A stretch of DNA of 64,000 bases from Candidatus Levybacteria bacterium RIFCSPHIGHO2_01_FULL_36_15b (GCA_001782045.1 MFNK01000003.1:269049-333048), one strand, 5' to 3'. Counted from the first letter of the stretch, positions 7,316 to 46,771 are shown. Notes: generated from the letters alone by a model not told the origin. Program-made: numbers and translations.

Positions 7316-8167
7316 CTATAATGTATTTTCCTTCAAAAATCTTCTTAGTCCGTCCTCCCATCTTGGTAAAACAATACCCATCTCCCTGGCCTTCGTATTT
7401 TTTAAAGGTGAGAATAATGGCGGCTTAGATGGCCTGTCAAAATCTTTTAAACTTATTGGAATTATGTTTATTCCATCTACATCGGAAAGTGCAAAAGCTT
7501 TTTTTGCCAACTGTAGCCTAGAAGCCATACCCTCGTTAACTAAGTGATAAAGTCCGAATTCATCAGATAATAATAATTCCTTAATAGCAGCAGCAAGATC
7601 TAGGGAATATGTAGGTGAGCTTATTTCATCTTTAACTATTCGAATTTGCTTGAGTTCCTTAGCTTTGCTAAATATTACATAAAGAAAATTGCGGCTCCAT
7701 TTACTGTATAACCAAGAAGTTCTAATGATAAAGTATTTTTTTAAATTCTCTTTTATGATATTTTCGGCGTGAAATTTTGTTTTACCCGCAATCGTTATTG
7801 GATTTGCCTTATCTTTTTCGATGTAAGCAGACTTCTTTTTGCCATCAAATACCTCGTTAGTACTTACAAAAAGAAGTGGAATGTCAAATTTTTTACATAC
7901 CTCCACAATATTTCTTGTTCCCTCTACGTTAATTCTATATGCTAGATCAGGATCTCTCGCGCAGTCATCGGCTCGAGTTAAAGAGGCAAAATGAAAAATC
8001 TTTCTAGGCTTAATTTTCGAGATTATCTTTGATACAAGATTTTTGTCTGTTACATCAAGCTCACTTTTAGTGGCCAAATAAAGTTCTCTTTTGGGGTATA
8101 CATCTAACATCGATTTTGCCAGTTGTCCATTACCTCCTGTTACCAATATGAGATTATTTAATTCCAT
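7316..8167 (-). CDS. RmlD-family NAD(P)H-dependent 4-keto-6-deoxy-sugar-nucleotide reductase (dTDP-4-dehydrorhamnose reductase-like)
   Basis: 283 aa. LILVTGGNGQLAK (Rossmann), AGKTKFHAE (YxxxK-like), IIRTSWLYS, GLYHLVNEG and LPRWEDGLRRFL align with RmlD. Confidence 0.75.
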   Translation of the reverse strand: MELNNLILVTGGNGQLAKSMLDVYPKRELYLATKSELDVTDKNLVSKIISKIKPRKIFHFASLTRADDCARDPDLAYRINVEGTRNIVEVCKKFDIPLLFVSTNEVFDGKKKSAYIEKDKANPITIAGKTKFHAENIIKENLKKYFIIRTSWLYSKWSRNFLYVIFSKAKELKQIRIVKDEISSPTYSLDLAAAIKELLLSDEFGLYHLVNEGMASRLQLAKKAFALSDVDGINIIPISLKDFDRPSKPPLFSPLKNTKAREMGIVLPRWEDGLRRFLKENTL

Positions 8168-8275: not shown

Positions 8276-9355
8276 ATGGCGGCAAAGAGAGCATTAATTA
8301 CAGGAGTTACAGGGCAGGATGGCTCATACATGGCAGAACTTCTTCTGGAAAAAGGCTACAAAGTATACGGTCTTCAGAGACACGCAAGTTATCCAAATAC
8401 ATCACGTATAGACCATTTACTTAATAATGCTAAATTTCCAAATTTCCAAACTGCCTTTGGCGATCTTTCCGATAGCGCAAACATTGCTGCAATTATTGAC
8501 AAGGCGGAGCCCGATGAAATTTATAATCTTGGAGCGCTTAGTCATGTCGGAGTTAGTTTTACAATGCCCGAGTATACAGTGGATGTTACAGGATTAGGGG
8601 CACTACGTATCTTAGAAGCCATACACCAGTTAAAGGCACCAACTAAATTTTATCAAGCTGGATCATCAGAAATGTTTGGAGCCGTTGAAAAACAGACGTT
8701 TCAGAACGAAAATACTCCATTTAATCCTCAATCTCCATATGCTATGTCAAAAGTTCTTGCTTTTCATACAACTCGGATATATAGAAAAAGCTACAATATT
8801 TTCGCAGCCAATGGAATTCTTTTTAATCACGAATCACCGCGACGGGGGGTATCTTTTGTTACACGGAAAATAACATTGGGTTTATCCCGAGTGAAGCTAG
8901 GACTGCAGGATGTACTTATGCTTGGTAACTTAAATGCTAAAAGAGATTGGGGATACTCAAGGGATTATGTTGAAGGAATTCATAAAATATTAAATTACAA
9001 AACGGCAGATGATTTCATCCTGGCAACTGGTGAGACACATACTGTACGTGAGTTTGTTGAGAGTGTTGCCAAGCAATTGGGATTTGATTTGGCGTGGAAA
9101 GGAAAGGGCCTAAAGGAAAAAGGCATTGATCGTAAGACTGGGAAAAAAATTATAGGCATAGATCCGGTCCACTTTCGTCCTGCAGAAGTAGATTATCTTC
9201 TCGGCGACTCATCAAAAGCAAGAAAGCTCCTTGGCTGGAAACCTAAAGTTAATTTCCAACAATTAGTTGAAATCATGATCAAGCATGATTATGATCTTAT
9301 GAAAAAAAATTTGGGAAAGGGACATAAATTAGTAACTAGACACCGTTTTTATTAA
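8276..9355 (+). CDS. gmd: GDP-mannose 4,6-dehydratase
   Basis: ALITGVTGQDGSYMAELLLEKGYKVYG, GSSEMFG, SPYAMSK, ILFNHESPRRG, FVTRKIT and DPVHFRPAEVDYLLGD are near-identical in pattern to bacterial Gmd. Confidence 0.95.
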   Translation: MAAKRALITGVTGQDGSYMAELLLEKGYKVYGLQRHASYPNTSRIDHLLNNAKFPNFQTAFGDLSDSANIAAIIDKAEPDEIYNLGALSHVGVSFTMPEYTVDVTGLGALRILEAIHQLKAPTKFYQAGSSEMFGAVEKQTFQNENTPFNPQSPYAMSKVLAFHTTRIYRKSYNIFAANGILFNHESPRRGVSFVTRKITLGLSRVKLGLQDVLMLGNLNAKRDWGYSRDYVEGIHKILNYKTADDFILATGETHTVREFVESVAKQLGFDLAWKGKGLKEKGIDRKTGKKIIGIDPVHFRPAEVDYLLGDSSKARKLLGWKPKVNFQQLVEIMIKHDYDLMKKNLGKGHKLVTRHRFY

Positions 9356-9380
9356 ACACAACTAACTAAATTCACATAAT

Positions 9381-9761
9381 GTGGAAAAAATAGCATATAA
9401 AAATAACTTAATAGCTCTTCGGCTAAAAAAAATTAAAAATGGAGTAATGTCTTTTACTGAACCAAGCGAGCCGATACAGCTTGTAACTCATAAAAGGTCC
9501 TTGGGAGAATACACAAAGGCGCACCTTCATTCACCCAAGAAACGTACTACGAATAAACTGCAGGAGTGCTTAGTTCTTATAAAGGGAAAGATAAAAATTG
9601 ACTTATATAATAGTGAGAAAAAATACTTCAAGTCTATTTTCATATCAGCAGGAGAAGCTGTTATATTCGTTAGTGGAGGACATGGTGTGCATATACTCGA
9701 GGACAGCGAAATTATAGAGATTAAGAATGGCCCTTTTATCGAAGATAAGGTTTTAATTTAA
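9381..9761 (+). CDS. Small cupin-fold protein, WxcM/FdtA-like sugar-nucleotide ketoisomerase/epimerase-like
   Basis: 126 aa with a His-x-His region (KAHLHSP) and C-terminal ...GGHGVHILEDSEIIEIKNGPF. Paralog of 18191-18589. Confidence 0.5.
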   Translation: MEKIAYKNNLIALRLKKIKNGVMSFTEPSEPIQLVTHKRSLGEYTKAHLHSPKKRTTNKLQECLVLIKGKIKIDLYNSEKKYFKSIFISAGEAVIFVSGGHGVHILEDSEIIEIKNGPFIEDKVLI

Positions 9762-9775
9762 ATTAAAACAATATT

Positions 9776-10435
9776 ATGAAAATTCTGGTTTTTGGAGGGG
9801 GAAGCGATCTTGCACAACAAATATATACCATGCAGAGGAACACTATCCTTGTGGAGCATGATGCCTGCGATATAAGTAGACCCAAGTCTGTGAAGAAGTT
9901 TATTCAAGCTCATAAGCCTGAAGTAGTAATAAATTGTGCTGGTTTGGTACAATCAGGATTAGTCAAGCAGCAAGATTTCGAGGATTGGAAAAATCAAGTT
10001 TTCACTAATTTAATTGGTAGTTTTAACATAGCTCAAGCAGCCACTAATAATGACGTAAAAACAATTATTTTAGTTGGCTCAGTTACGGGCTTATATGGAA
10101 AACCCAAATACAGCGCCTACTCAGCTGCAAAAGCCGGTGTCATTTCACTTGTCCAGTCTCTAGGTATGGAAGGAATTAACGCATATTGTGTCTCACCTGC
10201 TCGCATAGATACAAAGATGCGAAATAAAGAATTTCCCAACGAAGACAAGAGAAGCAGACTAACAACTCACGATGTGGCTAAGGTTATATTTGACTGCATT
10301 AATGGTAAATATAGGGCCGGAGATAATGTAATTATACTAAAACGGAAGTTCAGAAAGATTACCAGGGTTGACAGTGGACAGCCTTGGAAAGAATACCTAA
10401 ACATTAAACCTTACGAAACAGCTAAAACAATATAA
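9776..10435 (+). CDS. Short-chain dehydrogenase/reductase (SDR), probable sugar-nucleotide ketoreductase
   Basis: MKILVFGGGSDLAQQI (Rossmann), YSAYSAAKAG (YxxxK). Confidence 0.7.
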   Translation: MKILVFGGGSDLAQQIYTMQRNTILVEHDACDISRPKSVKKFIQAHKPEVVINCAGLVQSGLVKQQDFEDWKNQVFTNLIGSFNIAQAATNNDVKTIILVGSVTGLYGKPKYSAYSAAKAGVISLVQSLGMEGINAYCVSPARIDTKMRNKEFPNEDKRSRLTTHDVAKVIFDCINGKYRAGDNVIILKRKFRKITRVDSGQPWKEYLNIKPYETAKTI

Positions 10436-10483
10436 TATTTGAGAAATTTCTTAAAAAGAAATATAATCAAACCTTAATTCCTT

Positions 10484-11710
10484 ATGTTGGCAAAAAAATG
10501 CATTGTCTGCAGTAAATCAAATTTAACAAGAGTGATTGAGCTAGGTTTTCATCCATTAGCTGACACTTTCCTCAAAAAAGAACAACTATTGACTCCCCTA
10601 AGTACGTATCCACTCAACTGCTTACTCTGCAAAAACTGTGGACATTTACAGAATGAATACTTTACCTCAAGAGAAGAAAGATATATAGAAAGTAATTATA
10701 GCTATACATCTTTCAATTCAGAAACGGCAATAAAACATTGGATTGAGTTTTTCAATAATGTAAGTAAATATACTAACTTAAGCACTTCCGATCACGTAAT
10801 AGAATTCGGCTCAAACGACGGACATTTGCTTTCACATTTCAAAAAGAAAGGCGTTAAGGTGACTGGCATTGACCCTTCCCCCATTATGACCAGCCAGGCA
10901 AGAAAAATAGGCGTTGACTCAATAGCGGGGTTTGTAGGAAAAGATACAATCTCAACTGCTATAAAAATTAAAGGTAAAGCAAAAATAATCATGGGAAATA
11001 ACGTTCTGAATCATATTGAAAATTTAAAATCAGCCATGGACGGAGTAGTACAAGGCCTAAAGAAAGATGGCTATTTTGTTTTTGAAGTACCATCTTTAAA
11101 AGATACTTTAGAAAAATACTTGTTTGATATGATATTTCATGAGCATGTTTCTACGTTTAGCGTGCGCTCGGCAGATACGATGCTTAAAAGATACGGGCTT
11201 TACATTACGCATGTTGAGTACATAAACTACCATGGTGGCTCGCTAAGATTCATTTCTAGTCTAAATTCATCAGACTATAATTTCTCTCTTGTAAGTAAAT
11301 TTATTGAAGCGGAAGAGAAAGCAAAAATATTCAAACCAGAAACGTATACCAAGTTTATGGCAAAAATAGCTAAAGACCGGAATGATGTTTTGGCAAAGAT
11401 ATATAGCCTTAAGAAGCAGGGTAAAAAAATAGCCGCCGTTGGGGCTGGCGCAAGAAGTAATACGCTCCTAAACTTCTATAGACTCGATAAATATTCAGTC
11501 GAATTTGTTACAGACGCTTCAATGCATAAGATTGGAAAGTATACCCCCGGATCTTTTTTACTTATAAAAGATGACACTAGCCTTAAGAAAGAAAATATCG
11601 ACGTGGTTTTAATAACCGCTTGGAATATTGGTAAATATTTAACTCAGAAAATAAAGAATATAAATGATAAACTAGAAGTTATTGTCCCTGGAGAAAAAGA
11701 ACTATTGTGA
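10484..11710 (+). CDS. NDP-hexose C-methyltransferase-like (TylC3/NovU-type: Zn-ribbon + class I SAM MTase + C-methyltransferase C-terminal domain)
   Basis: N-terminal CIVCSKS...CKNCGHLQ zinc-ribbon-like Cys pairs and the SAM motif VIEFGSNDGHLL. Its 408-aa length is typical of sugar C3-methyltransferases. Confidence 0.65.
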   Translation: MLAKKCIVCSKSNLTRVIELGFHPLADTFLKKEQLLTPLSTYPLNCLLCKNCGHLQNEYFTSREERYIESNYSYTSFNSETAIKHWIEFFNNVSKYTNLSTSDHVIEFGSNDGHLLSHFKKKGVKVTGIDPSPIMTSQARKIGVDSIAGFVGKDTISTAIKIKGKAKIIMGNNVLNHIENLKSAMDGVVQGLKKDGYFVFEVPSLKDTLEKYLFDMIFHEHVSTFSVRSADTMLKRYGLYITHVEYINYHGGSLRFISSLNSSDYNFSLVSKFIEAEEKAKIFKPETYTKFMAKIAKDRNDVLAKIYSLKKQGKKIAAVGAGARSNTLLNFYRLDKYSVEFVTDASMHKIGKYTPGSFLLIKDDTSLKKENIDVVLITAWNIGKYLTQKIKNINDKLEVIVPGEKELL

Positions 11711-12141
11711 AGAAAACTAAAATTAAAATAGCTACGGAAGATGATCGAGGTAATATCTCTGATATTTTTTATAACCATCCGATTGATCACGTGGCAATTA
11801 TCCGTTCAAAGAAGGGAACATTCCGCGGAGACCACTATCATAAATTCACTACCCAGCATATATACATGGTGAAGGGGAGTCTAAGGTATTATTTTCGAAA
11901 AGTAGACGAAGATAATAGCAAGGTAAGAAGCACTATTATCCACGAGGGAGAACTAGTAACAACTGTCCCCAACGAAATACATGCTCTCGAAATGATTGAA
12001 GATAATCAATTCATAGCTTTTTCAGAAGGCAAGAGAGGCGGAGATGATTATGAATCAGATACTTTTCGGGTCTCTCCATCTATAATGAAAAACTACAGAA
12101 AAATTCACCCTACTGGCTCTGCAGGAAGACCTAAAAAATAG
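11707..12141 (+). CDS. FdtA/QdtA-like cupin (NDP-4-keto-6-deoxyhexose 3,4-ketoisomerase-like)
   Basis: 144 aa with the R-G-x-H-x-H motif (FRGDHYHKF) of FdtA-type isomerases. Confidence 0.6.
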   Translation: MKKTKIKIATEDDRGNISDIFYNHPIDHVAIIRSKKGTFRGDHYHKFTTQHIYMVKGSLRYYFRKVDEDNSKVRSTIIHEGELVTTVPNEIHALEMIEDNQFIAFSEGKRGGDDYESDTFRVSPSIMKNYRKIHPTGSAGRPKK

Positions 12142-13996: not shown

Positions 13997-14826
13997 TTTC
14001 TTAGAATATAACCTATACCACCTACTGCAAATTCACACGTTTTCATAAATAACATTCCGATTCCGAGAAGTGGATTTGAGAATAGTTTACTGGGATTGGA
14101 GAAAAATAACTCATATCTTTTAATCAAACTCAGTTGTTGTTTTGTTTTTAAATTGTTTATTTTTTTAGAGGAATAACTATTTAACTGTTTAGAGTAATAC
14201 ATTTTCTTACTTAAAAGAGTCCCAAGAGATAGATTTCCTTCATTATGATTTATATAGCTTTTTATCCTTCCCAGTTGGTATTTTTTTTCAACTCTCTGGC
14301 TTAAATCCCAATCTTCTCCGCTAACCAAGCTGTCATCATATCCACCAGATTCGTTAAAAACATTTTTTGGGAAAAACCTAGCTGCCTCTAGCCAACCCAC
14401 CCCTTCATAGAAACTTCGCTCCAGAGCCTTGCATTGTGCCCAAAAACCTTTTCCAAAAGATTTTTCAGGAATAATTATACCTCCAATTTTTCGATCTGCA
14501 TTTTTTATTCTTTGTTCTTTGATGATTTTTACACAATCCTGTGCAACCCTTGGTGTTAATTCCATATCGCTATCTATGAAAAGTAGATGTTCGCCTTTTG
14601 CCTTTGATGCACCGAAGTTTCTCTGTACGCTTCTTTCCGGACCTTTATTAAAAACTAGTTTTGTGTACTTCTTTGCAATTTCTTTCGTTTTATCAGTAGA
14701 ATAATTATCAACAACTATTATTTCAATATTGTCATATGTCTGGTTCTTTATACTTTTAATACAAGCATCCAAAAAAACAGCAGAATTTTTTGTTGGAACA
14801 ATAATAGATAGTAAAGGATTTATCAT
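13993..14826 (-). CDS. Glycosyltransferase family 2
   Basis: LLSIIVPTKNSAVFLDACIKSIKNQTYDNIEIIVVDNYSTDKT and a FIDSDME acidic motif. The start overlaps the upstream stop by 1 nt (TAATG). Confidence 0.8.
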   Translation of the reverse strand: MINPLLSIIVPTKNSAVFLDACIKSIKNQTYDNIEIIVVDNYSTDKTKEIAKKYTKLVFNKGPERSVQRNFGASKAKGEHLLFIDSDMELTPRVAQDCVKIIKEQRIKNADRKIGGIIIPEKSFGKGFWAQCKALERSFYEGVGWLEAARFFPKNVFNESGGYDDSLVSGEDWDLSQRVEKKYQLGRIKSYINHNEGNLSLGTLLSKKMYYSKQLNSYSSKKINNLKTKQQLSLIKRYELFFSNPSKLFSNPLLGIGMLFMKTCEFAVGGIGYILRK

Positions 14827-17048
14827 TATTTTCCTATTATTTTAAATTTTAATCGCTTTGCACGAAATACTATTTTCAAAATATAGACAATCAGATAAAT
14901 AAACACTCCTATAAAAGTCGCCAGGGATATATACGTTCCAATATTTACTAGGTCTTGAGGTATATAGTAAAGTCTTAGATTAAAGTTTATACTTCCATCT
15001 GTATTTTTAGTGTAAGATTCTGTACTGTAATTTTTTATAATGTCTGTGGGGTTGATATAAAAAACATTAAATTGCATGTCTGTTTGCAAATGATCTTTGT
15101 CAGAGAGTTGATGCTTGCCTTCTAATTCCAAAGCCCAATCTTTCGCATAGGTATTATTAAAATTAAGGTACAGCGGTTTGTTTATATTTTTTATTTCTAT
15201 TGTGTATTCTGCAGCATTTATATACTTATAATCTACAACTTTATATGGAACTTTTTTATAAACAGTTTCCATTTCTTCTGTAATGTATATAAGAGGTTTA
15301 TAATTAAAATTTTCATATGCTACCATATCTTTTGTCCCAATATCTATTCTTTTAATAAAGTTTAAATTATCAAAAAAGTTAATAATAAAAGGACGATCGT
15401 TTATGCTTGTACCCAGAAACATATCGTCATCAGGAGTATCTTTATATTGTGGTGGGATAACAATATATTTCGTGCTAGTTATATCTAAAAAATTGTCGGA
15501 AAAACTTTGATTTAGTACTTCAAAATTCCAGGGTAGATCGGGAGCTACTTTAGTGGTGTTATATACATGTTCCTTATATTTAGGATTTTTTTTGAATTCC
15601 AAATACCACGCATAAGCATCGTAGTATATTACATAGCGTGGATGAAGATTGTCAAAATAGCTCCACTTGCTAAGCGCAGGAAACCATAATGTTCTAGAAA
15701 ATTGAGTATCATTTTCTAAGATCTCTGCCAAAATTTTGTAATCAGCTGGAAGACTGATGGTATTAAATAATCTCCCGATTTCTCCAGTGAAAAGAGGTTT
15801 TGCATTCCAAATAAAAACACTTGCTATTACAACAAGAATTAAATAACGAGCATAGAAGAAGTAGTTTCTACTTACTTTGATCTGCATTAGTGATTTTACA
15901 AAAGCTCCAATCAATACGCTATAACCAAGCGCTACTAGCATATAGAATTTGCTTGCCTCTCTATACGCATTAAAACCCGGAAAATGATTGTAAAGCCAAA
16001 GATATAAATGTGGAAAGGGGTTGTCCTCCTGTTTTGCCAGTAAAATTCCCAATGCCGCTATGAAAGCAAAAAACCAGACTTTTTTATTTCTATAGTTAAA
16101 TATCAGTCCGAGTGCTGCTATATTTGGTATTAACCAAAAATAGAATGGGATTTGTTGTACGGTAAATACCTTTAGGGATTCCCCTGTCCAGTAAGGATGA
16201 AAGAGCGTTACAGCATGCGAAAGATAGAAAAAATGACTTCCAAATAACGCACGGTCGAATGCCACATTATGGAATAAAGTATCAGAAAGATAAAAAGGCA
16301 TTATCCAGAAGGAGTTCAAAAGAAACATGACTACAAAAGGGATGATTCCAAACATCAAAGTAGAAAAAATTCGTTTAAAGTTACGGTTTTTTATATTTGA
16401 AAAAACCTTATAAACAACATAAAAGAGCATTATCCACAGTACTATATATAGTATTCTGAAATCGTAGGAACCTGCTATAAAGCCCACTAAGCCCACAATT
16501 AGGCTTAAAATCAATTTCTTATTATCGATGCTCTTTATGAATAAATAGAGGATTAAAGGGGTGAATCCATAAGCTACGGCCCATTGAGCTGTGCCTGTCT
16601 GTAAAACAAGTGCAGGCACATTATAACCATATACTAATGCACCAACAATAGCGGCAGTCTTATTTTTCAATAGATATGATATGAGCATAAAACTTCCAAT
16701 GAGAGACAGTATCGCCATGGGAACGAGATATACTAACTTAGAAGCAATTATTGTACTTTGGAAAAAAGTACAGAGACTACCATACATTAAACTGAGAGAT
16801 GGGTACATCGAAAGAACGAAGTTTATCCTACCAAAGCCGGAACCACTTGTGTCTAAGGTCCAAGCGCTAGGAGATGAATAGATATCTCTACAAGTATTAA
16901 TAAACCAACTGAATTGGGAGGTATCCCCGGAGGAAAAAATTTCATTCATGAAAATCCACCTCCAGTGTGTAATTAACGCTATAAGGACAAGAATCATTAC
17001 TGGATAATATTTTTTTATTATATGCACCATATAGATTACGATGTTCAA
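14826..17048 (-). CDS. Family A polytopic membrane protein (740 aa), paralog of 2813-4993
   Basis: Same architecture and shared segments (FNAYREASKFY, IDIGTKDMVAYENFNYKPLIYITEE, PLYLNFNNTY...). Confidence 0.8.
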   Translation of the reverse strand: MNIVIYMVHIIKKYYPVMILVLIALITHWRWIFMNEIFSSGDTSQFSWFINTCRDIYSSPSAWTLDTSGSGFGRINFVLSMYPSLSLMYGSLCTFFQSTIIASKLVYLVPMAILSLIGSFMLISYLLKNKTAAIVGALVYGYNVPALVLQTGTAQWAVAYGFTPLILYLFIKSIDNKKLILSLIVGLVGFIAGSYDFRILYIVLWIMLFYVVYKVFSNIKNRNFKRIFSTLMFGIIPFVVMFLLNSFWIMPFYLSDTLFHNVAFDRALFGSHFFYLSHAVTLFHPYWTGESLKVFTVQQIPFYFWLIPNIAALGLIFNYRNKKVWFFAFIAALGILLAKQEDNPFPHLYLWLYNHFPGFNAYREASKFYMLVALGYSVLIGAFVKSLMQIKVSRNYFFYARYLILVVIASVFIWNAKPLFTGEIGRLFNTISLPADYKILAEILENDTQFSRTLWFPALSKWSYFDNLHPRYVIYYDAYAWYLEFKKNPKYKEHVYNTTKVAPDLPWNFEVLNQSFSDNFLDITSTKYIVIPPQYKDTPDDDMFLGTSINDRPFIINFFDNLNFIKRIDIGTKDMVAYENFNYKPLIYITEEMETVYKKVPYKVVDYKYINAAEYTIEIKNINKPLYLNFNNTYAKDWALELEGKHQLSDKDHLQTDMQFNVFYINPTDIIKNYSTESYTKNTDGSINFNLRLYYIPQDLVNIGTYISLATFIGVFIYLIVYILKIVFRAKRLKFKIIGK

Positions 17049-17210: not shown

Positions 17211-17239
17211 TTGACTTGCCAAGTTAAGCTCAATATAAT
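17211..17239 (+). promoter_or_regulatory. Sigma-70-type promoter, TTGACT-N17-TATAAT, upstream of the fcl operon
   Basis: TTGACT at 17211-17216, a 17-nt spacer and TATAAT at 17234-17239, about 25 nt upstream of the ATG at 17265. It lies in the largest intergenic region of the window (17049-17264). Confidence 0.5.
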
Positions 17240-17264: not shown

Positions 17265-18194
17265 ATGAAAATATTAGTTGCTGGCGGAACCGGATTCCTG
17301 GGACTCCACGTTGTAAATAGATTAAAGAAGGAGAATTTACCCTTTATAACTGCTTCTCTTTCTCAAGGTATCGATTTTAGAAATTATAAGCAGACGGAAA
17401 AATTCTTTAAAGAAAATAAAATAGATACTGTGATATATTGCGCTGCTTTTGTGGGAGGAATTTCCTATGGCTATGAGAAACCGGCAGAGAGCTATTACAA
17501 CAATATCCTGATGGCTACGAATTTAATAGAACTCTCCAGAATATATAAAGTTAAAAGGTTTATAAATCCTATCTCAAATTGCTCGTATCCAGGACACCTA
17601 ACGAAAAAACTCAAGGAAGAGTTATGGTGGGATGGACCACTTCATGAGTCTGTACTGGCCTACGGAATTGCTAGAAAAGCAAGTTGGGTACAGACTTGGG
17701 CATATAACAAGCAATATGGTATGGATTTTATTAATCTGATACTACCCAATATGTATGGACCTTCGGATCACTTCGACGAAAAAAAGTCTCATGTAATAGG
17801 TGCACTAATAATGAAGATGTGTGACGCAAAGGCAGAAGGTAGGAAAGATGTAATTGTCTGGGGTAGCGGAAAACCGATCCGAGAGTGGTTATACGTAAAA
17901 GACGCTGTGACGGTTATCTTAAAATCTATATCAATAACCCCAACTATAGAGCCAATAAATATTGGGATAGGCGAAGGTATTTCTGTAAGAGCACTCGCCG
18001 AATTAATTAAAGATATTGTGGGCTATAAAGGGAAGCTAGTTTACGATCCTACTAAGCCAGATGGGGCGCCCTATAAAATAATGGACAACAAAAGGATGAT
18101 TAAGCATTTTATGGGCTGGATTCCGCCCACTAAATTGAGAGATGGGATAGAAGAAACTGTTGAATGGTATTTGAATAATAAAAAGAAAGCATGA
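17265..18194 (+). CDS. fcl: GDP-L-fucose synthase (GDP-4-keto-6-deoxy-D-mannose 3,5-epimerase/4-reductase)
   Basis: MKILVAGGTGFLG, NMYGPSDHF, SHVIGALI, VIVWGSGKPIREWLYVKD and KPDGAPYKIMD all align with E. coli Fcl. Confidence 0.85.
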   Translation: MKILVAGGTGFLGLHVVNRLKKENLPFITASLSQGIDFRNYKQTEKFFKENKIDTVIYCAAFVGGISYGYEKPAESYYNNILMATNLIELSRIYKVKRFINPISNCSYPGHLTKKLKEELWWDGPLHESVLAYGIARKASWVQTWAYNKQYGMDFINLILPNMYGPSDHFDEKKSHVIGALIMKMCDAKAEGRKDVIVWGSGKPIREWLYVKDAVTVILKSISITPTIEPINIGIGEGISVRALAELIKDIVGYKGKLVYDPTKPDGAPYKIMDNKRMIKHFMGWIPPTKLRDGIEETVEWYLNNKKKA

Positions 18195-18589
18195 ATATAA
18201 TTAAAGGTGGGAAATTGTTTGCAATCATTCATAAGAAAGAGGATTGGAAAGAAGAATTAAACTTTCTCACTCCAAATGACATGTTTTGTCAAGTTGGAAC
18301 ATGGTGGTATCAAAAGAATAAACATCTTAAGGCACATAAGCATATTTATAATCCTCGTAAAGCTTCAATGACTCAGGAATGTGTGATCGTTATTGTTGGC
18401 AAAATTAAAGCTACAATTTTCGATAACAATGATAAAATTATTCATACGGATATACTTACAGCAGGAGACTTACTTGTTTGCTTCGAGGGAGGCCACAGCT
18501 ACGACATTTTGGAAGATGATACAAAAGTTATTGAATGCAAGAATGGACCATTCGTTTCTGTGGAAAAAGATAAGGTAACAATTGAATGA
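18191..18589 (+). CDS. Small cupin-fold protein, paralog of 9381-9761 (WxcM/FdtA-like)
   Basis: 132 aa with KAHKHIY (H-x-H) and ...EGGHSYDILEDDTKVIECKNGPF. Translationally coupled (ATGA overlap) to fcl. Confidence 0.5.
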   Translation: MNIIKGGKLFAIIHKKEDWKEELNFLTPNDMFCQVGTWWYQKNKHLKAHKHIYNPRKASMTQECVIVIVGKIKATIFDNNDKIIHTDILTAGDLLVCFEGGHSYDILEDDTKVIECKNGPFVSVEKDKVTIE

Positions 18590-19308
18590 TTTCAAATATA
18601 GTTTTATTTTCAGATAGAGAAGATGTTAAGCACTGCATCGCTTATTTAAGAAAAAAGGGAGTGCCTATTCTATATATAGTTTCCAACAAATTAAAAGACA
18701 GCAATTATAATTTAGAGATTAGAAAGAATATTGTAGATAGAGATTATAAAAATTCAATCTTAATATCATATTACTACGGAAGTTTAATAGAGAAAAAAAT
18801 TTTTAATCGTTTTAAGGTAGCAATCAATTTCCACCCCGCACCCCTCCCTTTATATAGAGGAGTTAAATGCGGTGTTCATGCAATACTAAACGAAGAAAAA
18901 AAATTTGGTGTCTCTTGTCACATCATTACTGAAAGATTTGATGATGGTGAAATTTTGGGCAAACTAGAGTTTCCAATAGATGATATTGAAACAGGATATT
19001 CAATTAATATAAAAAGCAGAAAGAAACTATATGATTTATTTAAAAGATACATAAATAAATATATATTTGGGGAAAATGTAAATATGTATGAAATACTAGA
19101 TAATATTAGTTATAATTTATCATCTCCAACTTATTTTTCTGGAAAAGATTTTGAAAAACTAAAATGTTTGGATGGAATTAATCCTTATTCTGTTTATGCA
19201 AAAAAAATAATAAGAGCTATGTGGCATCCTAAGTACATGGACACTTATTATACAAATAAAAAAAAGGAGAAAATCTATCTTTCACATACACCAGCTGAGG
19301 TGAGCTAA
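18586..19308 (+). CDS. Formyltransferase-domain protein, probable sugar N-formyltransferase
   Basis: INFHPAPLPLYRG (the N-x-H...HPS/A-LP-x-YRG N10-formyl-THF motif of Fmt/PurN/ArnA), followed by an Asp (DDGEI) at the expected spacing. Confidence 0.65.
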   Translation: MISNIVLFSDREDVKHCIAYLRKKGVPILYIVSNKLKDSNYNLEIRKNIVDRDYKNSILISYYYGSLIEKKIFNRFKVAINFHPAPLPLYRGVKCGVHAILNEEKKFGVSCHIITERFDDGEILGKLEFPIDDIETGYSINIKSRKKLYDLFKRYINKYIFGENVNMYEILDNISYNLSSPTYFSGKDFEKLKCLDGINPYSVYAKKIIRAMWHPKYMDTYYTNKKKEKIYLSHTPAEVS

Positions 19309-19310
19309 AT

Positions 19311-20417
19311 ATGAAAAACAAGAACAACAAGAAAATTGACTTTATACCTCAAATGGAACCCTCTTTTGATGAAAATGAAACTAATCAATTAATAAAGTAC
19401 ATGAGAGGAGGGGGATGGGTCACAGAGTTCAAAAAAACCCAGGAGTTTTCAGAAATGGTGCGCGACTATACAAAGTCAAAGTTCTGTTCTATCGTGTCCA
19501 ACGGCACTGTAAGCTTATATATAGCACTTATGGCATGCGGAGTAAGAAAGGGGGACGAAGTTATTGTTCCTGATTACACTATGATTGCAAGTCCAAATGC
19601 AATAGTTCTTGCTGGAGCAAAACCAGTTTTTTGCGATATAGAAAAAGCGACACTTTGTTTAGATTTTGAGCTATTTAAAAAACTCGTCAATCCTAAAACG
19701 AAGGCTGTAATGCTGGTAACAGTAAATGGAAGATACCCAACAAAATATATGGATATAGTTAACTTTTGTAAAGAAAATAAAATATTCTTAATAGAAGACG
19801 CAGCGCAATCATTTGGATCATTTTATAAGAAGAAACATCTTGGAACGTTTGGAGATATTGGAAGTTATTCATTCAGTGCTCCAAAAATAATAACTACCGG
19901 GCAAGGAGGAGCCTTAGTTACAGACAATCCTGAACTTTATGAAAAAATAAGAAAGATCAGGGATTTTGGACGAGAAAATCCAGGCAATGACCATTATCTT
20001 ACTCTTGGCTGGAATTTTAAATTTACTGATCTCCAAGCTGTCATAGGAATAGAACAACTAAAAAAAATGAAATTCAGAGTAAAAAGAAAAAAAGAGATAT
20101 ATAAATTATATACAAAATTATTGAGGAACAATAATAAGATTGAACTTATACCAACAAATCTTGAGGATACATCACCATGGTTTAACGATATTCTTGTGGA
20201 GAAAAGGACTGAATTAATAGAATTTTTAAAAATGAGTAATATAGGGACTCGGGAATTTTATCCAGCACTTCATTCAACCCCGGTATATAATATAAGAAAA
20301 GAGTTCCCGATTACTGAAATGGTTGCCAGAAAAGGCCTATGGCTACCATCCTCTGTCAAATTAACGGACGAAGATATAGCGTACATCTGTTCTAAGATAA
20401 ATGAATTTTATAAATAA
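19311..20417 (+). CDS. DegT/DnrJ/EryC1/StrS-family PLP-dependent sugar aminotransferase
   Basis: ...SAPKIITTGQGGALVTDNPELYEKIRKIRDFGRE... (PLP-lysine region). Length is 368 aa. Confidence 0.85.
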   Translation: MKNKNNKKIDFIPQMEPSFDENETNQLIKYMRGGGWVTEFKKTQEFSEMVRDYTKSKFCSIVSNGTVSLYIALMACGVRKGDEVIVPDYTMIASPNAIVLAGAKPVFCDIEKATLCLDFELFKKLVNPKTKAVMLVTVNGRYPTKYMDIVNFCKENKIFLIEDAAQSFGSFYKKKHLGTFGDIGSYSFSAPKIITTGQGGALVTDNPELYEKIRKIRDFGRENPGNDHYLTLGWNFKFTDLQAVIGIEQLKKMKFRVKRKKEIYKLYTKLLRNNNKIELIPTNLEDTSPWFNDILVEKRTELIEFLKMSNIGTREFYPALHSTPVYNIRKEFPITEMVARKGLWLPSSVKLTDEDIAYICSKINEFYK

Positions 20418-20424
20418 TATTTAG

Positions 20425-21207
20425 ATGAATACAAAATATGCAATTTTAATTTTATCTTCCGATAAATATCGTGATTTATGGGTTCCTTTTTTTGAACTTT
20501 TTTGGAAGAACTGGCCAAGTTGTCCATTTAATGTTTACTTGGGCAGTAATTCTCACGCTTTCTATCACAAGAGAGTAAAAAATATATTAACGGGAAAGGA
20601 CATTAATTGGTCTACAAGTTATAAAAAGATATTAAAACAGATTCCTGAAAAATATATTTTTGTTTTATTGGAAGATTCAATTATTACAAGCAAGATAGAT
20701 ACTGCTTTGTTCATAAAGTGCTTTAATTTTGCTGAGAGCAATGAAATAAACCATCTAAATTTTACCTCTTTACCTAGTTCTGCAATTACCTCCAAAAATC
20801 CAAAATTTATACCTGTAAAAAGATTCATACCATATAGAGTCCACGTTATTGGTTTCTGGAAAAAAGATTATCTATATGACCTTCTTCTCGAAGGAGAAAA
20901 TCCTTGGAGCTTTGAAATTATGGGCTCATATAGATCTTCCTACGATGACGGATTTTATTCTACCAAGTATCCTATTTATTCATCTATACACTTAGTTAAG
21001 AAGAATAAATGGATCCAGAATGGCTTACAATACTGTAAAGATAACGCAATAGGGATCGATATTTCTAAGAGGAAAAGCTTATCTATGTTCGAGCAACTTT
21101 TGTATAATCTCCATGAATATTATTTCAAATTTATTTATTTTCATTTTGATTGGAAAATTCGAGTGGGATTTATGAATATATTAAGAAGAGCACTGTTAAG
21201 TTACTAA
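20425..21207 (+). CDS. Hypothetical protein, possibly a nucleotide-diphospho-sugar transferase-fold enzyme
   Basis: 260 aa. ILILSSDKYRDLW...FVLLEDSII (acidic DxD-like motif). No confident family assignment. Confidence 0.5.
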   Translation: MNTKYAILILSSDKYRDLWVPFFELFWKNWPSCPFNVYLGSNSHAFYHKRVKNILTGKDINWSTSYKKILKQIPEKYIFVLLEDSIITSKIDTALFIKCFNFAESNEINHLNFTSLPSSAITSKNPKFIPVKRFIPYRVHVIGFWKKDYLYDLLLEGENPWSFEIMGSYRSSYDDGFYSTKYPIYSSIHLVKKNKWIQNGLQYCKDNAIGIDISKRKSLSMFEQLLYNLHEYYFKFIYFHFDWKIRVGFMNILRRALLSY

Positions 21208-28996: not shown

Positions 28997-30550
28997 TTAT
29001 CTGAAAATTAAATTCTGGAAATAATTTGGATCTACTTCTAATTTATCCTTGGAAAGATCTATTTTCTCAACAACTATACCACTGTCAAATCTTTTAAAAG
29101 TTGCGGGCTCCGCTTGCGTTCTAATTACGTTTTCCTTCCAGAATAAATGAGCATTATCATCATTCTGACGGGGCGGATACATTATTAAATACGTGTTCTG
29201 TGATTTTCTATTCTCGAGCTGGTTTAACCTATTTTCTTTTGAGAAATACCAAATTAGGTAATCCATATTATAGGTTAAAATACCCGGTGAATATACAAAG
29301 TATCCCGCGTCTTTTCGTTTAGAATCATTAATAACCCACTCGGCAACCTCTTTCTGATTTATGTAAGTTCCATTGCTTACTGATTTATATTCTTGATTTT
29401 GAAGATATACAGTACTGAGATAATTCAAAGGCGCTATGACTGCAATTAAAAGAAAGGCTAAAACTAGGAAACGAAGAAAAGGAATTTTCCAAATGATTTT
29501 TATTGATAAGCTTACGATAAAAGAAAAAATTACAGCAATTGGAAGAAGATAGTGGGACCACAAAGGGAAAGGGTAAATTATGTAAAAACCAAAGATCAAG
29601 ACAGGAGAGAACAAAAGAAAAATAAACTCTTTATCCAACTTTTGAATTCTTGAGCTTCTAATTTTTTTGGTTAAAAAGAATAATGCAGAGAAAATAATAG
29701 AAACCAATAATATTTCTGAAATTATATTTTTTTCATATAAAGGCGAGAAAAAACTATCCCACAAAGCATTTGCCCTATCACCCACCCTAAATATAATATC
29801 TGAATACTGTTCGTAACCGGGAAGTGGTTTATGTGTATTTGTGAATAATTTAAATACAGAAGAAGTCATTAAAAACTGATGCCTTAAGTCGAAAAGAATA
29901 AAAGTAGATACTGCCAATACCGCGCTTAGAAAGCCTAAAAATAAATATTTGATTCTTGGAATTCTTCCTGCAAAAAGAAAAGCTAAAATAGTTACCGGCA
30001 GAAGAAGGACAGAAAATGCAGACTCAAACTGAAAACCCAGTCCTATTGAAAAGAGTGCAAGTATAAAATATTTTTCCTCCCCTCTGATAAATTTAACTAT
30101 TGAAAGAAGATATAAAAGAAACACAATGGGAAGTACTTGAGCGTTAGTAGTAATTTGAGTAGATGCAATAAGCTCACCTGATATGGTAAGAAAAAAAGCA
30201 ACAAGCAGTCCTAGCCAGTTGTTATACAGCTTCCATCCTACAATAAAACCGGCTGCAACAATTCCTAGATTTACCAAAAGGAAAAGCGGAATGAGGGTAA
30301 GGAAAGGATTTCCTCCAGACAAGATAAAGAATGGAACTATAAAATATATCCATAACACCCCATGAAATAAGCCTCCGAAGCCCGTACGTCCTCCTATAAG
30401 AGTTAAATCGTGGTCCACTGCAATTGACTTAGCAATAAGCAAATCCCTTGCCTGGTCTACCAAATAAAAAAAATCTCCGTTCAATAACATATTTGACCTT
30501 AGCAAAAAAGCAATCAAAAGAATTGCTATGAATAAAAGGAGGGTCTTCAT
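28997..30550 (-). CDS. Family B polytopic membrane glycosyltransferase (ArnT/GT83-like with DQARD loop motif)
   Basis: 517 aa. The first extracytoplasmic loop ...FYLVDQARDLLIAKSIAVDHDLTLIGGRTGFGGLFHGVLWIYF aligns with the ArnT DEARYAEIAREML...KPPL region. Confidence 0.7.
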   Translation of the reverse strand: MKTLLLFIAILLIAFLLRSNMLLNGDFFYLVDQARDLLIAKSIAVDHDLTLIGGRTGFGGLFHGVLWIYFIVPFFILSGGNPFLTLIPLFLLVNLGIVAAGFIVGWKLYNNWLGLLVAFFLTISGELIASTQITTNAQVLPIVFLLYLLSIVKFIRGEEKYFILALFSIGLGFQFESAFSVLLLPVTILAFLFAGRIPRIKYLFLGFLSAVLAVSTFILFDLRHQFLMTSSVFKLFTNTHKPLPGYEQYSDIIFRVGDRANALWDSFFSPLYEKNIISEILLVSIIFSALFFLTKKIRSSRIQKLDKEFIFLLFSPVLIFGFYIIYPFPLWSHYLLPIAVIFSFIVSLSIKIIWKIPFLRFLVLAFLLIAVIAPLNYLSTVYLQNQEYKSVSNGTYINQKEVAEWVINDSKRKDAGYFVYSPGILTYNMDYLIWYFSKENRLNQLENRKSQNTYLIMYPPRQNDDNAHLFWKENVIRTQAEPATFKRFDSGIVVEKIDLSKDKLEVDPNYFQNLIFR

Positions 30551-32859: not shown

Positions 32860-34508
32860 TATTTATCCTTGCTGTAGGTAGTATAACATGTGAACCTTGG
32901 ATTGACCTTTATGATACTTTTAATTGAATCTATTTCTTTTTTACCCAAGCCTTGGGTGTCTTTGAAGGTACTTAAATCCTGGTTTAAAATACGCTTTTGT
33001 ACAATAAGATCAGTATATTTCTTCTCTTCAATGAGGCTTGATGTATTATCTTCCATGTATATAAATACCGGTTTTATGAAATCTGAAATGCCAGCATTCG
33101 GCTCTAAAATAATAAATCTCAATGGCACGTGATTTTTATCATACGGAAGATTATTAGAGTCTACTACCTGTTCTTGACCTGCCCAATACGGAACATAACC
33201 ATATGTGTTTTTGCCATATGTACTATATAAATATGACCAGAGCACGTTAATATATAACGGATTTGTCAAAGCGCATATACTAAATGGCTTACCTTCAGCA
33301 GAGATGTATGTGTAATCAATTAAATTCTTCTCATCTTTTAATGTAAAATTTTGAATACTTAAAAGCTTTATTGCTTTAAAATTATCTGAAACAAACAAGT
33401 ACATATTAGAAACAAAAACAATAAGAATCCCCAGTATTAGGATGATATTTTTGGCAGATTTGATATTTACAAGTACATAGGCGGCAAGTATTGATAGTGG
33501 AGCAAAAAAAGTTGTATTTATTAATTGAGTCTCATGAACCCCGCTGAATGTCAAAAATAGTGGAGCTGTTGCGAACAGCCAAATGAAAAAAAAGATTTTA
33601 GTTTTAGACACCTTAATTTTAATCCAGGAAAATATTGAAAAAGATATAAACAATGCAAATGCAATTGTTGTGTCAAAGGCAAGAAGTGAATAGCGGATAG
33701 CCTGTGATATTTTAACTATATACCTATTTATTCCTCCAATTAAATCAAAGGTTTGCTTGTGGGATAGCACATAATTAAGCAACGATTTTGTCATCATAAA
33801 ATTCCATTTTAATTCTGCAATTAAATACGGCGAAAAGAGGGCAAACAGTAAGACAAAATTTAACAATAATATCCTTAAGCCTATCTTTGGTTTAAAAATC
33901 AAAAAATAAACGATGTAGAAAATTAGCTGATAAAATAGGTAAAAATTTGTCTGGACACTTAATGCAAAACCGATTACCGAGATTGTTAAGCCAATGTTTT
34001 TCTTTTGGAAAATAAATATTGCAAGCCCGATAAAAAACAATAACGATGCTATTCCCATAGGGGATGCATTAGATATAAATTTTGAGAAATTTATCTGCTC
34101 ATAAGAAACTGCCCAGAAAAAAGCAGCAAGCAATCCCACTCTCTTATCATTAAATAAAATGATGCTCGTAAAATATATTAAAAATATTGCGCTGATATTG
34201 ATAAGTGACAAAAATATTGCAGGAAAATTTGGATTAAATCCGCCTATTAAATAAACTATTGCTAGAACGTAGTAAGATAAAACTCCATGAAACACACCCG
34301 GTATATCAGATTCCTGTCCTAATAACTTAAAATTCTTAAGGTTAACAATGTCTAACATTCTTTGTGCATCTCTCGCTTGATCGTAACCAAAAGTAAAATT
34401 ATCCCAGATATTAAATAGCCTTAAGCACGCTCCAAAGGAAAATATTAACAAGAGGATAAATAGCGGATTTTGAAACAATTTCTTTATAAATTTTAAATTA
34501 ATTTTCAT
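32859..34508 (-). CDS. Family B polytopic membrane glycosyltransferase (ArnT-like, DQARD motif)
   Basis: ...FGYDQARDAQRMLDIVNLKNFKLLGQESDIPGVFHGVLSYY.... 549 aa, ~13 TM. Confidence 0.7.
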   Translation of the reverse strand: MKINLKFIKKLFQNPLFILLLIFSFGACLRLFNIWDNFTFGYDQARDAQRMLDIVNLKNFKLLGQESDIPGVFHGVLSYYVLAIVYLIGGFNPNFPAIFLSLINISAIFLIYFTSIILFNDKRVGLLAAFFWAVSYEQINFSKFISNASPMGIASLLFFIGLAIFIFQKKNIGLTISVIGFALSVQTNFYLFYQLIFYIVYFLIFKPKIGLRILLLNFVLLFALFSPYLIAELKWNFMMTKSLLNYVLSHKQTFDLIGGINRYIVKISQAIRYSLLAFDTTIAFALFISFSIFSWIKIKVSKTKIFFFIWLFATAPLFLTFSGVHETQLINTTFFAPLSILAAYVLVNIKSAKNIILILGILIVFVSNMYLFVSDNFKAIKLLSIQNFTLKDEKNLIDYTYISAEGKPFSICALTNPLYINVLWSYLYSTYGKNTYGYVPYWAGQEQVVDSNNLPYDKNHVPLRFIILEPNAGISDFIKPVFIYMEDNTSSLIEEKKYTDLIVQKRILNQDLSTFKDTQGLGKKEIDSIKSIIKVNPRFTCYTTYSKDK

Positions 34509-34510
34509 TT

Positions 34511-46476: not shown

Positions 46477-46537
46477 AGACTAATTCTATCAACTTTCAAT
46501 TTTTATTGCATAAAACTAAGACCTTCTCTATAATTAA

Positions 46538-46771
46538 GTGGTGAATAATTTTCTAATTCCGCAAATTCCCTCATTGCTTCTTTTTGCAGCTTTCCTTTGG
46601 ACTTTGCTTTGGAAAGGCATAGCACTATGGAGAGCCGCCAACTTAAAACAAAAGAATTGGTTTATAGCAATTCTTGTTTTAAACACGTTAGGAATTCTAG
46701 AGCTTGTTTACTTGTTTTATTTTGCTAAAAAAAGGCTTACCATACAAGAACTTAAATTTTGGGAAAAATAA
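46538..46771 (+). CDS. Possible small 2-TM membrane protein (77 aa, GTG start), PLDc_N-like pattern
   Basis: Two hydrophobic helices (LLLFAAFLWTLLW / WFIAILVLNTLGILELVYLFYF). Its 3' end overlaps the convergent gene 46697-49051 by 75 nt, which lowers confidence. Confidence 0.3.
   Translation: MVNNFLIPQIPSLLLFAAFLWTLLWKGIALWRAANLKQKNWFIAILVLNTLGILELVYLFYFAKKRLTIQELKFWEK

Follow-up and report, generated by a model that had tools for sequence, protein, structure and literature searches.

The DNA analyzed here is a stretch of 64,000 nucleotides (the window, G+C content 32%) from Candidatus Levybacteria bacterium RIFCSPHIGHO2_01_FULL_36_15b (GCA_001782045.1, MFNK01000003.1:269049–333048), a bacterium of the candidate phyla radiation (CPR), and our subject is an operon of five co-directional genes on its plus strand (17265–21207) that carries enzymes of nucleotide-sugar modification. 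A contig identical to that of the window has also been recovered in several wastewater and groundwater assemblies, and the window matches Candidatus Levybacteria bacterium RIFCSPLOWO2_01_FULL_36 with proteins of 100% identity. A preliminary description, made from the sequence alone, had placed four same-strand open reading frames (ORFs) at 17265–20417, and our ORF listing reproduces them exactly. They encode an Fcl-like extended short-chain dehydrogenase/reductase (SDR) of 309 residues (17265–18194; Pfam Epimerase/GDP_Man_Dehyd, PF01370, E value 1.6e-46), a small cupin of 132 residues with a conserved metal-type motif and a weak resemblance to WbuC (18191–18589), a putative sugar N-formyltransferase of 240 residues with the WbkC/WbtJ/VioF architecture and catalytic residues N81, H83, and D119 (18586–19308), and a DegT-family sugar aminotransferase of 368 residues that would use pyridoxal 5′-phosphate (PLP) bound to K192 (19311–20417). 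A fifth ORF of 260 residues, which matched no family (20425–21207), begins 7 nucleotides after the aminotransferase gene and was missed by that description.

The genes are closely packed. Four-nucleotide overlaps join the first three (18191/18194 and 18586/18589), and 2 nucleotides separate the formyltransferase gene from the aminotransferase gene, an arrangement consistent with translational coupling. A sigma-70-like site (TTGACT-17-TATAAT, 17211–17239, plus strand, 11 of 12 consensus positions) lies in the divergent intergenic region, 26 nucleotides 5′ of the first ATG; it is a consensus match only, and such sites in this AT-rich stretch are no commoner than the shuffled expectation. The GDP-mannose 4,6-dehydratase Gmd is encoded upstream on the same strand (8276–9355), 9.0 kb start to start, in agreement with the distance of about 9 kb given previously, and it passes the equivalog threshold of its family (TIGR01472, 454.7 bits against a cut-off of 415). 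Pfam and NCBIfam scans found no other 4,6-dehydratase in the window, the remaining SDRs being GalE, RmlD, and a short-chain reductase.

Formyltransferase

The 240-residue protein matches Formyl_trans_N (PF00551; E value 2e-13, 50.9 bits against a cut-off of 26.1). The motif on which it had first been called a formyltransferase is present in the translation (...AINFHPAPLPLYRG... plus ...FDDGEIL), and in an alignment of 50 relatives N81, H83, and D119 are invariant, likewise L87, P88, H112, and G121. This catalytic triad aligns with NLHPSLLP...FDTG of WbkC, and the sequence INFHPAPLPxYRG marks out a family of proteins of about 250 residues. In a sequence search of the PDB, ranks 1–5 went to WbkC, which N-formylates GDP-perosamine, to WbtJ, and to a VioF-like enzyme; the alignment with WbtJ extends into the C-terminal subdomain (residues 43–233 aligned to 4nv1), where we also found a weak match to PF18216 (residues 208–233). 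Comparison of an AlphaFold2 model (predicted local distance difference test, pLDDT, 95.4) with known structures by Foldseek gave the same picture: ranks 1–27 are all sugar 4-N-formyltransferases matched over the full length (template modeling (TM) score 0.68–0.79), including WbkC, WbtJ, VioF, Rv3404c, and enzymes from Shewanella, P. congelans, and Pantoea, followed by the 3-N enzymes HCAN and WlaRD and then by Fmt (first at rank 33) and ArnA. The triad, the PDB ranks, and the Foldseek ranks together uphold the assignment as a sugar-type N-formyltransferase, and the grouping with Fmt, PurN, or PurU that the preliminary description had named as the result to be feared did not appear, the protein joining WbkC, WbtJ, and VioF in both sequence and fold.

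The enzyme is not an orthologue of any characterized one, because it misses all NCBIfam cut-offs; for the VioF model (PRK07579) the score was 52.5 bits against a cut-off of 238. Its lineage is rare, with nine matches in a word-index search of 5.8 billion proteins and just three homologues at E ≤ 1e-30 in an exhaustive search of 1.84 billion representatives. We infer from sequence and model that the protein is a sugar N-formyltransferase of a separate, rare lineage, predicted to transfer formyl from N10-formyl-tetrahydrofolate.

Aminotransferase

The fourth ORF is a strong match to DegT_DnrJ_EryC1 (PF01041; E value 6.4e-93, 312 bits). K192, within the segment SAPKIITTG, falls on the PLP lysine in the alignment with PglE, and all of 21 orthologues have it, so that the loss of this lysine, the other outcome that had been held to speak against the assignment, was not seen; among all surveyed aminotransferases of the window type, the position is lysine in every case but one (Arg in locus L078). 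With Lys rather than His at the PLP site, the protein should be an aminotransferase and not a dehydratase of the ColD/E1 type, and we excluded a ColD-type dehydratase on this ground.

NCBIfam and PDB searches identified mainly C4 enzymes as the nearest named relatives (LegC, PseC, PglE, and GDP-perosamine synthase). PglE is the best PDB match and GDP-perosamine synthase is a full-length match (E value 1e-47); the C3 aminotransferase QdtB is also close (E value 1.5e-44), and all NCBIfam equivalog cut-offs are missed. Most likely, then, the protein is a C4 enzyme acting on a GDP-4-keto-6-deoxyhexose. Several public assemblies call it as 354 residues from Met15 (19353), but the FIxQMEP segment before Met15 is conserved among orthologues, and thus the 368-residue start at 19311 is the better model.

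The cassette in other genomes

Loci in other genomes are referred to by number. In L011, Gmd, the Fcl-like protein, the cupin, the formyltransferase, and the aminotransferase are encoded in a single block; L012 (and L013, the start of which is cut off) has the order Fcl-like, cupin, formyltransferase, aminotransferase; and L008 has cupin, formyltransferase, and aminotransferase genes at a contig edge, with about 50% identity. Close homologues of the formyltransferase are always flanked by a cupin and an aminotransferase. Synteny also backs the GDP link proposed in the preliminary description, since Gmd heads the same gene block in L011, and Gmd directly adjoins the cassette in L018 and many survey loci as well.

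The formyltransferase slot is occupied by other enzymes elsewhere. We chose arbitrarily three members of the Fcl-like subfamily on long contigs (L014, L016, and L018), and in these the slot holds a methyltransferase (L014 and L018) or a hexapeptide acyltransferase (L016). The 4-N-acyltransferase AntD acylates the C4 amine of dTDP-4-amino-4,6-dideoxyglucose. The acyltransferase of L016 is AntD-like (E value 3e-39), the AntD structure being PDB entry 3vbn (PMC6031040). The N-tailoring slot is interchangeable between predicted formyl-, AntD-like acyl-, and methyltransferases.

Two further observations concern this slot. The slot methyltransferase (187 residues, L014:7374–7934) has homologues in at least 12 survey loci; its match to the Pfam class-I models is limited to their second half (residues 31–80 against positions 47–93 of 95), and we found no informative relative in the PDB. 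For a methyltransferase it seems unusually short. Distant formyltransferase genes (41–64 bits to the window enzyme) lie near the aminotransferase gene in other versions of the cassette (L020:10448–11218, L067:10550–11455, L082:10055–10849, L112:1403–2143, and L127:8100–8837), with a methyltransferase gene in addition in L020 and L067. It seems that the cassette acquired formyl tailoring on more than one occasion.

Two surveys were used to count neighbors. The first was centered on the Fcl-like gene, with one genome per GTDB species (80 loci from Bacteria and Archaea), and it covers Dehalococcoidia, Bathyarchaeia, Saccharibacteria and other CPR groups, spirochaetes, Clostridia, and Methanosarcinales, along with cultured Selenomonas, Ensifer, and Bradyrhizobium. 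Flanks of 3 kb or more on each side are available for 59 of these loci. Of the 59, 49 (83%) have a DegT-family gene no farther than 4 kb from the Fcl-like gene, 29 have a window-type aminotransferase gene, 30 a cupin gene, and 40 Gmd; the DegT genes fall into three lineages. The second survey was centered on the aminotransferase gene in metagenome contigs (80 loci, 40 with at least 3 kb upstream). Here the cupin is the most constant partner of the aminotransferase (28 of 40), usually encoded directly after Gmd, which is equally frequent (28 of 40), while an Arg-type Fcl-like gene (described below) is found in 10 of 40. The cupin is absent from 12 of the 40, and five loci of the first survey combine the aminotransferase orthologue with Gmd and an Fcl-like gene and no cupin (L037, L065, L071, L075, and L082). 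From these counts, the most constant unit comprises Gmd, the cupin, the aminotransferase, and an N-tailoring enzyme that varies; the Fcl-like paralog often joins them, as it does in the window.

Fcl-like protein

The first protein of the operon had been named GDP-fucose synthase. It does belong to the Fcl family: its best PDB matches are Fcl enzymes (E value 6e-61), it shares 33% identity with GMER of E. coli, and it keeps the GxxGxxG motif (G7, G10, and G13 invariant). That it is a canonical Fcl did not hold, given a score of 259.7 bits against an equivalog cut-off of 500 (NCBIfam GDPFucSynFcl, NF047922), an Arg in place of Lys140, and the linkage to an aminotransferase and not to Gmd alone. 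Residues S104, C106, Y133, R137-K138, and H176 correspond to Ser107, Cys109, Tyr136, Lys140 (replaced by Arg and followed by Lys), and His179 of GMER, so the Ser-Tyr-Lys redox triad (S107, Y136, and K140) is broken by the Arg at the catalytic Lys140 position, a residue shared by all 120 closest homologues. The Cys109/His179 pair of epimerization is present. The top E. coli entry among the PDB matches is 1e7s, which we take to be the K140R mutant of GMER.

The subfamily is large (2520 matches at E < 1e-40) and its survey loci repeat this pattern. The Cys109/His179 pair is conserved in all 80 loci, 64 have Arg at the Lys140 position, and 29 have Pro, Ala, or Gly in place of Ser107; a canonical Fcl with the T-C-Y-K-K-H set is encoded beside the paralog in eight. 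We therefore regard the protein as a divergent paralog of GDP-fucose synthase. We considered whether the Lys-to-Arg change could by itself diagnose a dead reductase and dropped the idea: Lys-type members occur in the cassette, and an Arg-type member occurs with a ColD-like gene.

Eight loci of the aminotransferase survey (L130, L132, L136, L142, L144, L154, L155, and L165) carry, between Gmd and the aminotransferase orthologue, full-length Fcl-like ORFs that read N, F/L, and V/I at the Ser107, Cys109, and Tyr136 positions and keep GxxGxxG and His179. They resemble SDRs that have lost redox function and are conserved as part of an amino-sugar cassette. GMER stabilizes GMD, and a scaffold or Gmd-stabilizing role is one possibility for them.

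DegT-family genes with His in place of the PLP lysine (ColD/E1-like) adjoin the paralog in L084 (8954–10177) and L076 (6795–7970), in the latter on top of a cupin gene and a Lys-type aminotransferase gene; they hint at 3-deoxygenated variants of the pathway.

Cupin and 260-residue protein

The 132-residue protein has no Pfam match and scores 36.3 bits, under the cut-off of 42, with the NCBIfam WbuC-cupin model (TIGR04366). Its AlphaFold2 model is a confident, nearly all-beta barrel (pLDDT 95). The sequence contains H49-x-H51, E63-x6-G70, and H102, and Q34, H49, H51, R56, E63, G70, H102, E115, K117, G119, and D127 are invariant in 41 sequences; the protein would accordingly carry the full metal-ligand motif of cupins. 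Its relatives are hypothetical proteins of about 132 residues. It is 41% identical to the cupin of L008 and 35% identical to a second cupin in the window (9381–9761), encoded directly after Gmd, and alignment of its profile to a further cupin-like ORF at 11707–12141 by hhalign was weak (probability 47%).

The preliminary description had taken the protein as a possible ketoisomerase. It is indeed a cupin, but similarity to the FdtA/QdtA type was found in neither sequence nor fold: the Pfam FdtA model (PF05523) gave no match even at E values up to 5, and the top 50 Foldseek matches in the PDB contain no FdtA, QdtA, Tyl1a, or RmlC structure. Metallo-cupins of a generic kind fill these ranks instead, namely quercetinase, cysteine dioxygenase, D-lyxose isomerase, and KdgF; CapF comes in at rank 37. 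PDB searches with the single sequence and with a profile found no relatives, and the literature on WbuC deals almost wholly with mcr-9 gene neighborhoods.

For the 260-residue ORF we found no Pfam, NCBIfam, or meaningful PDB match. Homologues directly follow the aminotransferase gene in L168 (215 bits), L175, and L178 and lie close by in L156, L144, L050, and L052. The protein may be a dedicated transferase or a further tailoring enzyme.

A proposed pathway and its alternatives

Taking these data together, we lean toward the view that the operon and Gmd make a GDP-linked 4-formamido-4,6-dideoxyhexose for the surrounding surface-glycan locus. The parts of this proposal differ in strength. That the product is an N-formylated nucleotide amino-6-deoxyhexose we hold with good confidence, a GDP link is probable, and the amine is rather likely to be at C4; whether the sugar is epimerized, that is, something other than plain D-perosamine, is a near-even call on which we incline slightly to the negative. 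The preliminary description had predicted a GDP-linked hexose with a 4- or a 3-formamido group; its headline, a GDP-formamido-deoxyhexose, stands, and of the two isomers we favor C4. We do so because the formyl (WbkC/WbtJ/VioF) and acyl (AntD) tailoring enzymes of the cassette resemble 4-N enzymes, because the nearest relatives of the aminotransferase are C4 enzymes, and because the cupin-less loci with an orthologous aminotransferase offer only a 4-keto group.

The pathway would begin with Gmd, a clear family member, which is predicted to convert GDP-mannose to GDP-4-keto-6-deoxy-D-mannose. The Fcl-like paralog and the metal-type cupin would then act on this 4-keto intermediate, which is the weakest step of the scheme; most likely they would edit the stereochemistry at C3 and/or C5 by enolization and not reduce C4. 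Here the paralog would epimerize C3/C5 through its conserved Cys/His pair and leave the C4 ketone intact, and the cupin would assist enolization with its metal, for which the C3 epimerization proposed for the cupin domain of CapF offers a precedent. Next, the PLP aminotransferase, identified by its family and its lysine, would convert the C4 ketone to an amine, the regiochemistry being the predicted part. Finally, the formyltransferase, with its family, triad, and 4-N-type fold, would transfer formyl from N10-formyl-tetrahydrofolate to that amine; the 260-residue protein would be part of the same unit. A single linear pathway with a C4 aminotransferase needs an intact C4 ketone, which is why we suggest that the Fcl-like protein epimerizes without reducing, and such epimerization would in turn lead to a configuration other than that of perosamine. 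The degenerate redox residues, the coexisting canonical Fcl enzymes, and the fully degenerate SDRs in sister loci back a non-reducing role. A bolder reading for the family at large, which we hold to be less likely than not, is that Arg-type Fcl paralogs and metallo-cupins are non-reducing epimerases/isomerases of GDP-4-keto-6-deoxy-D-mannose and give rise to undescribed, non-perosamine GDP-4-amino-4,6-dideoxyhexoses, possibly of the L-series, with plug-in formyl-, acyl-, or methyltransferases.

Several points weigh against this proposal. The Fcl-like protein keeps GxxGxxG, Tyr, and the basic dipeptide, and some members of the cassette have an intact Ser-Tyr-Lys set (L027 and L076). In L084, a ColD-like dehydratase (His for the PLP Lys) accompanies an Arg-type member, which suggests that some members still reduce C4 in the manner of ColC; if the window protein did so, its product could not feed a C4 aminotransferase. 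The cupin has generic fold matches only, which do not point to a chemistry. The preference of the formyltransferase for 4-N over 3-N structures in Foldseek is modest (E value 7e-16 compared to 2e-13), and the layout Gmd-cupin-aminotransferase-acyltransferase parallels RmlB-FdtA-FdtB-FdtC, which makes 3-amino sugars. Gmd lies about 8 kb from the operon and belongs to another sugar cassette too. The presence of RmlD (7316–8167, minus strand; TIGR01214, 240.6 bits against a cut-off of 224) may make a dTDP route compatible with the window alone. All enzyme activities in the operon are, finally, predicted ones.

The main rival splits the product of Gmd between two separate nucleotide sugars. On this reading, the Fcl-like protein would be a working 3,5-epimerase/4-reductase that yields GDP-L-fucose or another 6-deoxy-L-hexose, the aminotransferase and formyltransferase would make GDP-N-formyl-D-perosamine as in Brucella, and the cupin would be accessory. 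In E. coli O157, one cluster unites gmd, fcl, and per with the gene of an N-acetyltransferase, and both fucose and N-acetylperosamine are used. The GxxGxxG, Cys, Tyr, and His residues of the Fcl-like protein and its 33% identity to GMER would suit this reading, as would the full Ser-Tyr-Lys set of some relatives, the colitose-like layout of L084, in which a reductase is needed beside the ColD-like dehydratase, and the 6 of 40 loci in which aminotransferase orthologues have neither partner. Against these stand the score of the Fcl-like protein, far under the NCBIfam Fcl cut-off; the change of Lys to Arg in 64 of 80 loci and the loss of Ser in 29 of 80; the DegT-family genes, of three aminotransferase lineages, within 4 kb of the paralog in 83% of its loci; and the eight loci in which a canonical Fcl is additional to it. 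In eight other-survey loci, moreover, an Fcl-like protein without Ser, Cys, and Tyr sits between Gmd and the aminotransferase, and the conserved cupin is left unexplained. We consider this two-product reading unlikely, although it is the alternative that survives best.

Less likely still is a 3-formamido-3,6-dideoxyhexose, in which the cupin would be a 3,4-ketoisomerase of GDP-4-keto-6-deoxymannose, the aminotransferase would act at C3, and the 3-amine would be formylated, a GDP counterpart of FdtA/FdtB/FdtF related to GDP-mycosamine. The constancy of the cupin beside the aminotransferase, usually straight after Gmd (28 of 40), fits well, and this order of dehydratase and cupin genes matches the pathways to the dTDP-linked 3-amino-3,6-dideoxy sugars Fuc3N and Qui3N. 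The invariant H49-x-H51 recalls the catalytic histidines of FdtA, QdtB is a good PDB match of the aminotransferase (E value 1.5e-44), and a metal-stabilized 3,4-enediolate would suit an isomerase. FdtA and QdtA are, however, not known to depend on a metal, whereas this cupin has a full set of metal ligands; it matched neither PF05523 (E value up to 5) nor, within the top 50 of Foldseek, any structure of FdtA, QdtA, or Tyl1a. Both tailoring enzymes, moreover, are 4-N-like (WbkC/WbtJ/VioF and AntD), and the cupin-less loci (L037, L065, L071, L075, and L082 in the first survey and 12 of 40 in the second) would present the aminotransferase with a 4-keto group only.

We give little credence to a route through a dTDP- or UDP-linked 4-keto sugar, for example to dTDP-4-formamido-4,6-dideoxyglucose (dTDP-Qui4NFo) as by VioA and VioF, with RmlB encoded outside the window. 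The dTDP-sugar enzymes WbtJ, VioF, and Rv3404c fit the formyltransferase as well as WbkC does, the UDP-sugar enzyme PglE is the best PDB match of the aminotransferase, and RmlD is encoded at 7316–8167, with no RmlA, RmlB, or RmlC found in the window. On the other side, Gmd is the sole 4,6-dehydratase found in the window; it adjoins the cassette in L011 and L018 and in the majority of survey loci (40 of 59 in one survey, 28 of 40 in the other); and the SDR encoded with the aminotransferase is a member of the Fcl family, which acts on GDP-sugars. That the formyltransferase homologue is a housekeeping Fmt, PurN, or PurU located here by chance is scarcely credible and was ruled out on the PDB and Foldseek ranks: the NCBIfam fmt model gives the numerically best E value (8e-15), but over residues 52–138 only and with 54.7 bits against a cut-off of 201.5, and the 240-residue protein is without the C-terminal tRNA-binding domain of Fmt, matches sugar N-formyltransferases over the full-length fold and C-terminal subdomain, and has close homologues that are always flanked by the cupin and aminotransferase.

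Surrounding genes

The second sugar cassette of the window (8276–12141, plus strand) shares Gmd with the operon. After Gmd it encodes the paralogous cupin (9381–9761; 35% identical to the operon cupin), a short SDR (9776–10435), a TylC3-type sugar C-methyltransferase (10484–11710; Methyltransf_13/14), and, in a cupin-like ORF of 144 residues (11707–12141), a match to the C-terminal domain found in reductases of the WbcJ/CapF type, all on the plus strand. This suggests that its product is a GDP-linked, C-methylated 6-deoxyhexose.

Divergent from the operon lies the gene of a 740-residue multi-pass membrane protein with no Pfam match (14826–17048, minus strand); locus L018 has a 755-residue DUF2206 membrane protein at a comparable position. 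Tandem genes for membrane proteins of about 510–795 residues form long runs on the minus strand at 28997–40950, 43163–49051, and 53762–62722. Those that were scanned match GT-C-like glycosyltransferase families (PMT_2, PTPS_related, and YfhO), and one is a GT2-PMT_2 fusion. The glycan-assembly locus around the operon is unusually large for a small CPR genome. No tRNA or Rfam features were found in the window.

Discussion

The logic of dehydratase, aminotransferase, and N-formyltransferase is already known. In the Brucella pathway to GDP-N-formylperosamine (Gmd, Per, and WbkC), Gmd is likewise followed by a DegT-family C4 aminotransferase and an Asn-His-Asp enzyme of the Formyl_trans_N family, and WbkC is the top match of the window formyltransferase by sequence and fold, with an identity of just about 20%. 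We know of no Fcl-like paralog and no cupin in that pathway. Their conservation in the window-type unit is a difference, on account of which the product may not have the D-perosamine configuration. The enzymes of the dTDP-Qui4NFo pathway (RmlA/B, VioA, and VioF/WbtJ/Rv3404c) share the short two-domain architecture and the C-terminal motif with the window formyltransferase (TM score up to 0.79), but the partner in the window is Gmd rather than RmlB, the VioF cut-off is missed (52.5 compared to 238 bits), and the folate-loop motif HPAPLP is the hallmark of the separate family of about 250 residues. The pathways to dTDP-3-acetamido-3,6-dideoxygalactose (Fuc3NAc) and to the 3-formamido analogue of quinovose, Qui3NFo (FdtA/QdtA, FdtB/QdtB, and FdtC/FdtF), have the same gene order of dehydratase, cupin, aminotransferase, and N-acyl- or N-formyltransferase; there the differences are that the window cupin is not FdtA-like and that the tailoring enzymes are 4-N-like and not 3-N-like.

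The two remaining proteins also have known counterparts. Fcl/GMER/WcaG, ColC, and C. jejuni Cj1428/MlghC share with the window paralog the extended SDR fold, GxxGxxG, and the equivalents of Cys109, His179, and Tyr136, whereas the paralog has Arg for Lys140, belongs to a subfamily that often loses Ser107, and is linked to an aminotransferase. WbuC cupins and the cupin domain of CapF/FnlB are, like the window protein, small cupins with a His/His/Glu/His motif in sugar-nucleotide clusters, and the CapF domain has been proposed to work ahead of the SDR domain as a C3 epimerase of a 4-keto-6-deoxy sugar. The window cupin differs in that it falls below the WbuC cut-off, stands alone, and is tied to a GDP pathway and an aminotransferase. 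A literature search for this gene combination or for GDP-linked formamido sugars, which covered part of the relevant literature, found nothing relevant. What appears to be new is the formyltransferase lineage, the obligatory-looking cupin together with an aminotransferase-linked Fcl paralog of altered triad, and a broadly distributed cassette with an interchangeable tailoring slot.

To our knowledge, formamido sugars are rare, and the characterized examples come from a handful of pathogens. A formamido sugar at this locus would be made by a CPR bacterium, a member of a group whose surface glycans are essentially unknown, and the cassette spans many bacterial and archaeal phyla, including cultured strains of Selenomonas, Ensifer, and Bradyrhizobium. 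Two of its four core proteins, the altered-triad Fcl paralog and the metal cupin, have no demonstrated function. Once their chemistry is solved, it would add a branch to GDP-sugar metabolism, show whether evolution has reused the scaffold of an SDR reductase for a pure epimerase, and improve the annotation of thousands of genes now called GDP-L-fucose synthase or hypothetical protein. If this non-reducing role holds for the family at large, it would provide the first defined reaction for the long-orphan WbuC-like cupins and a new family of GDP-4-amino-4,6-dideoxyhexoses in CPR bacteria, Dehalococcoidia, Bathyarchaeia, Selenomonas, rhizobia, and others.

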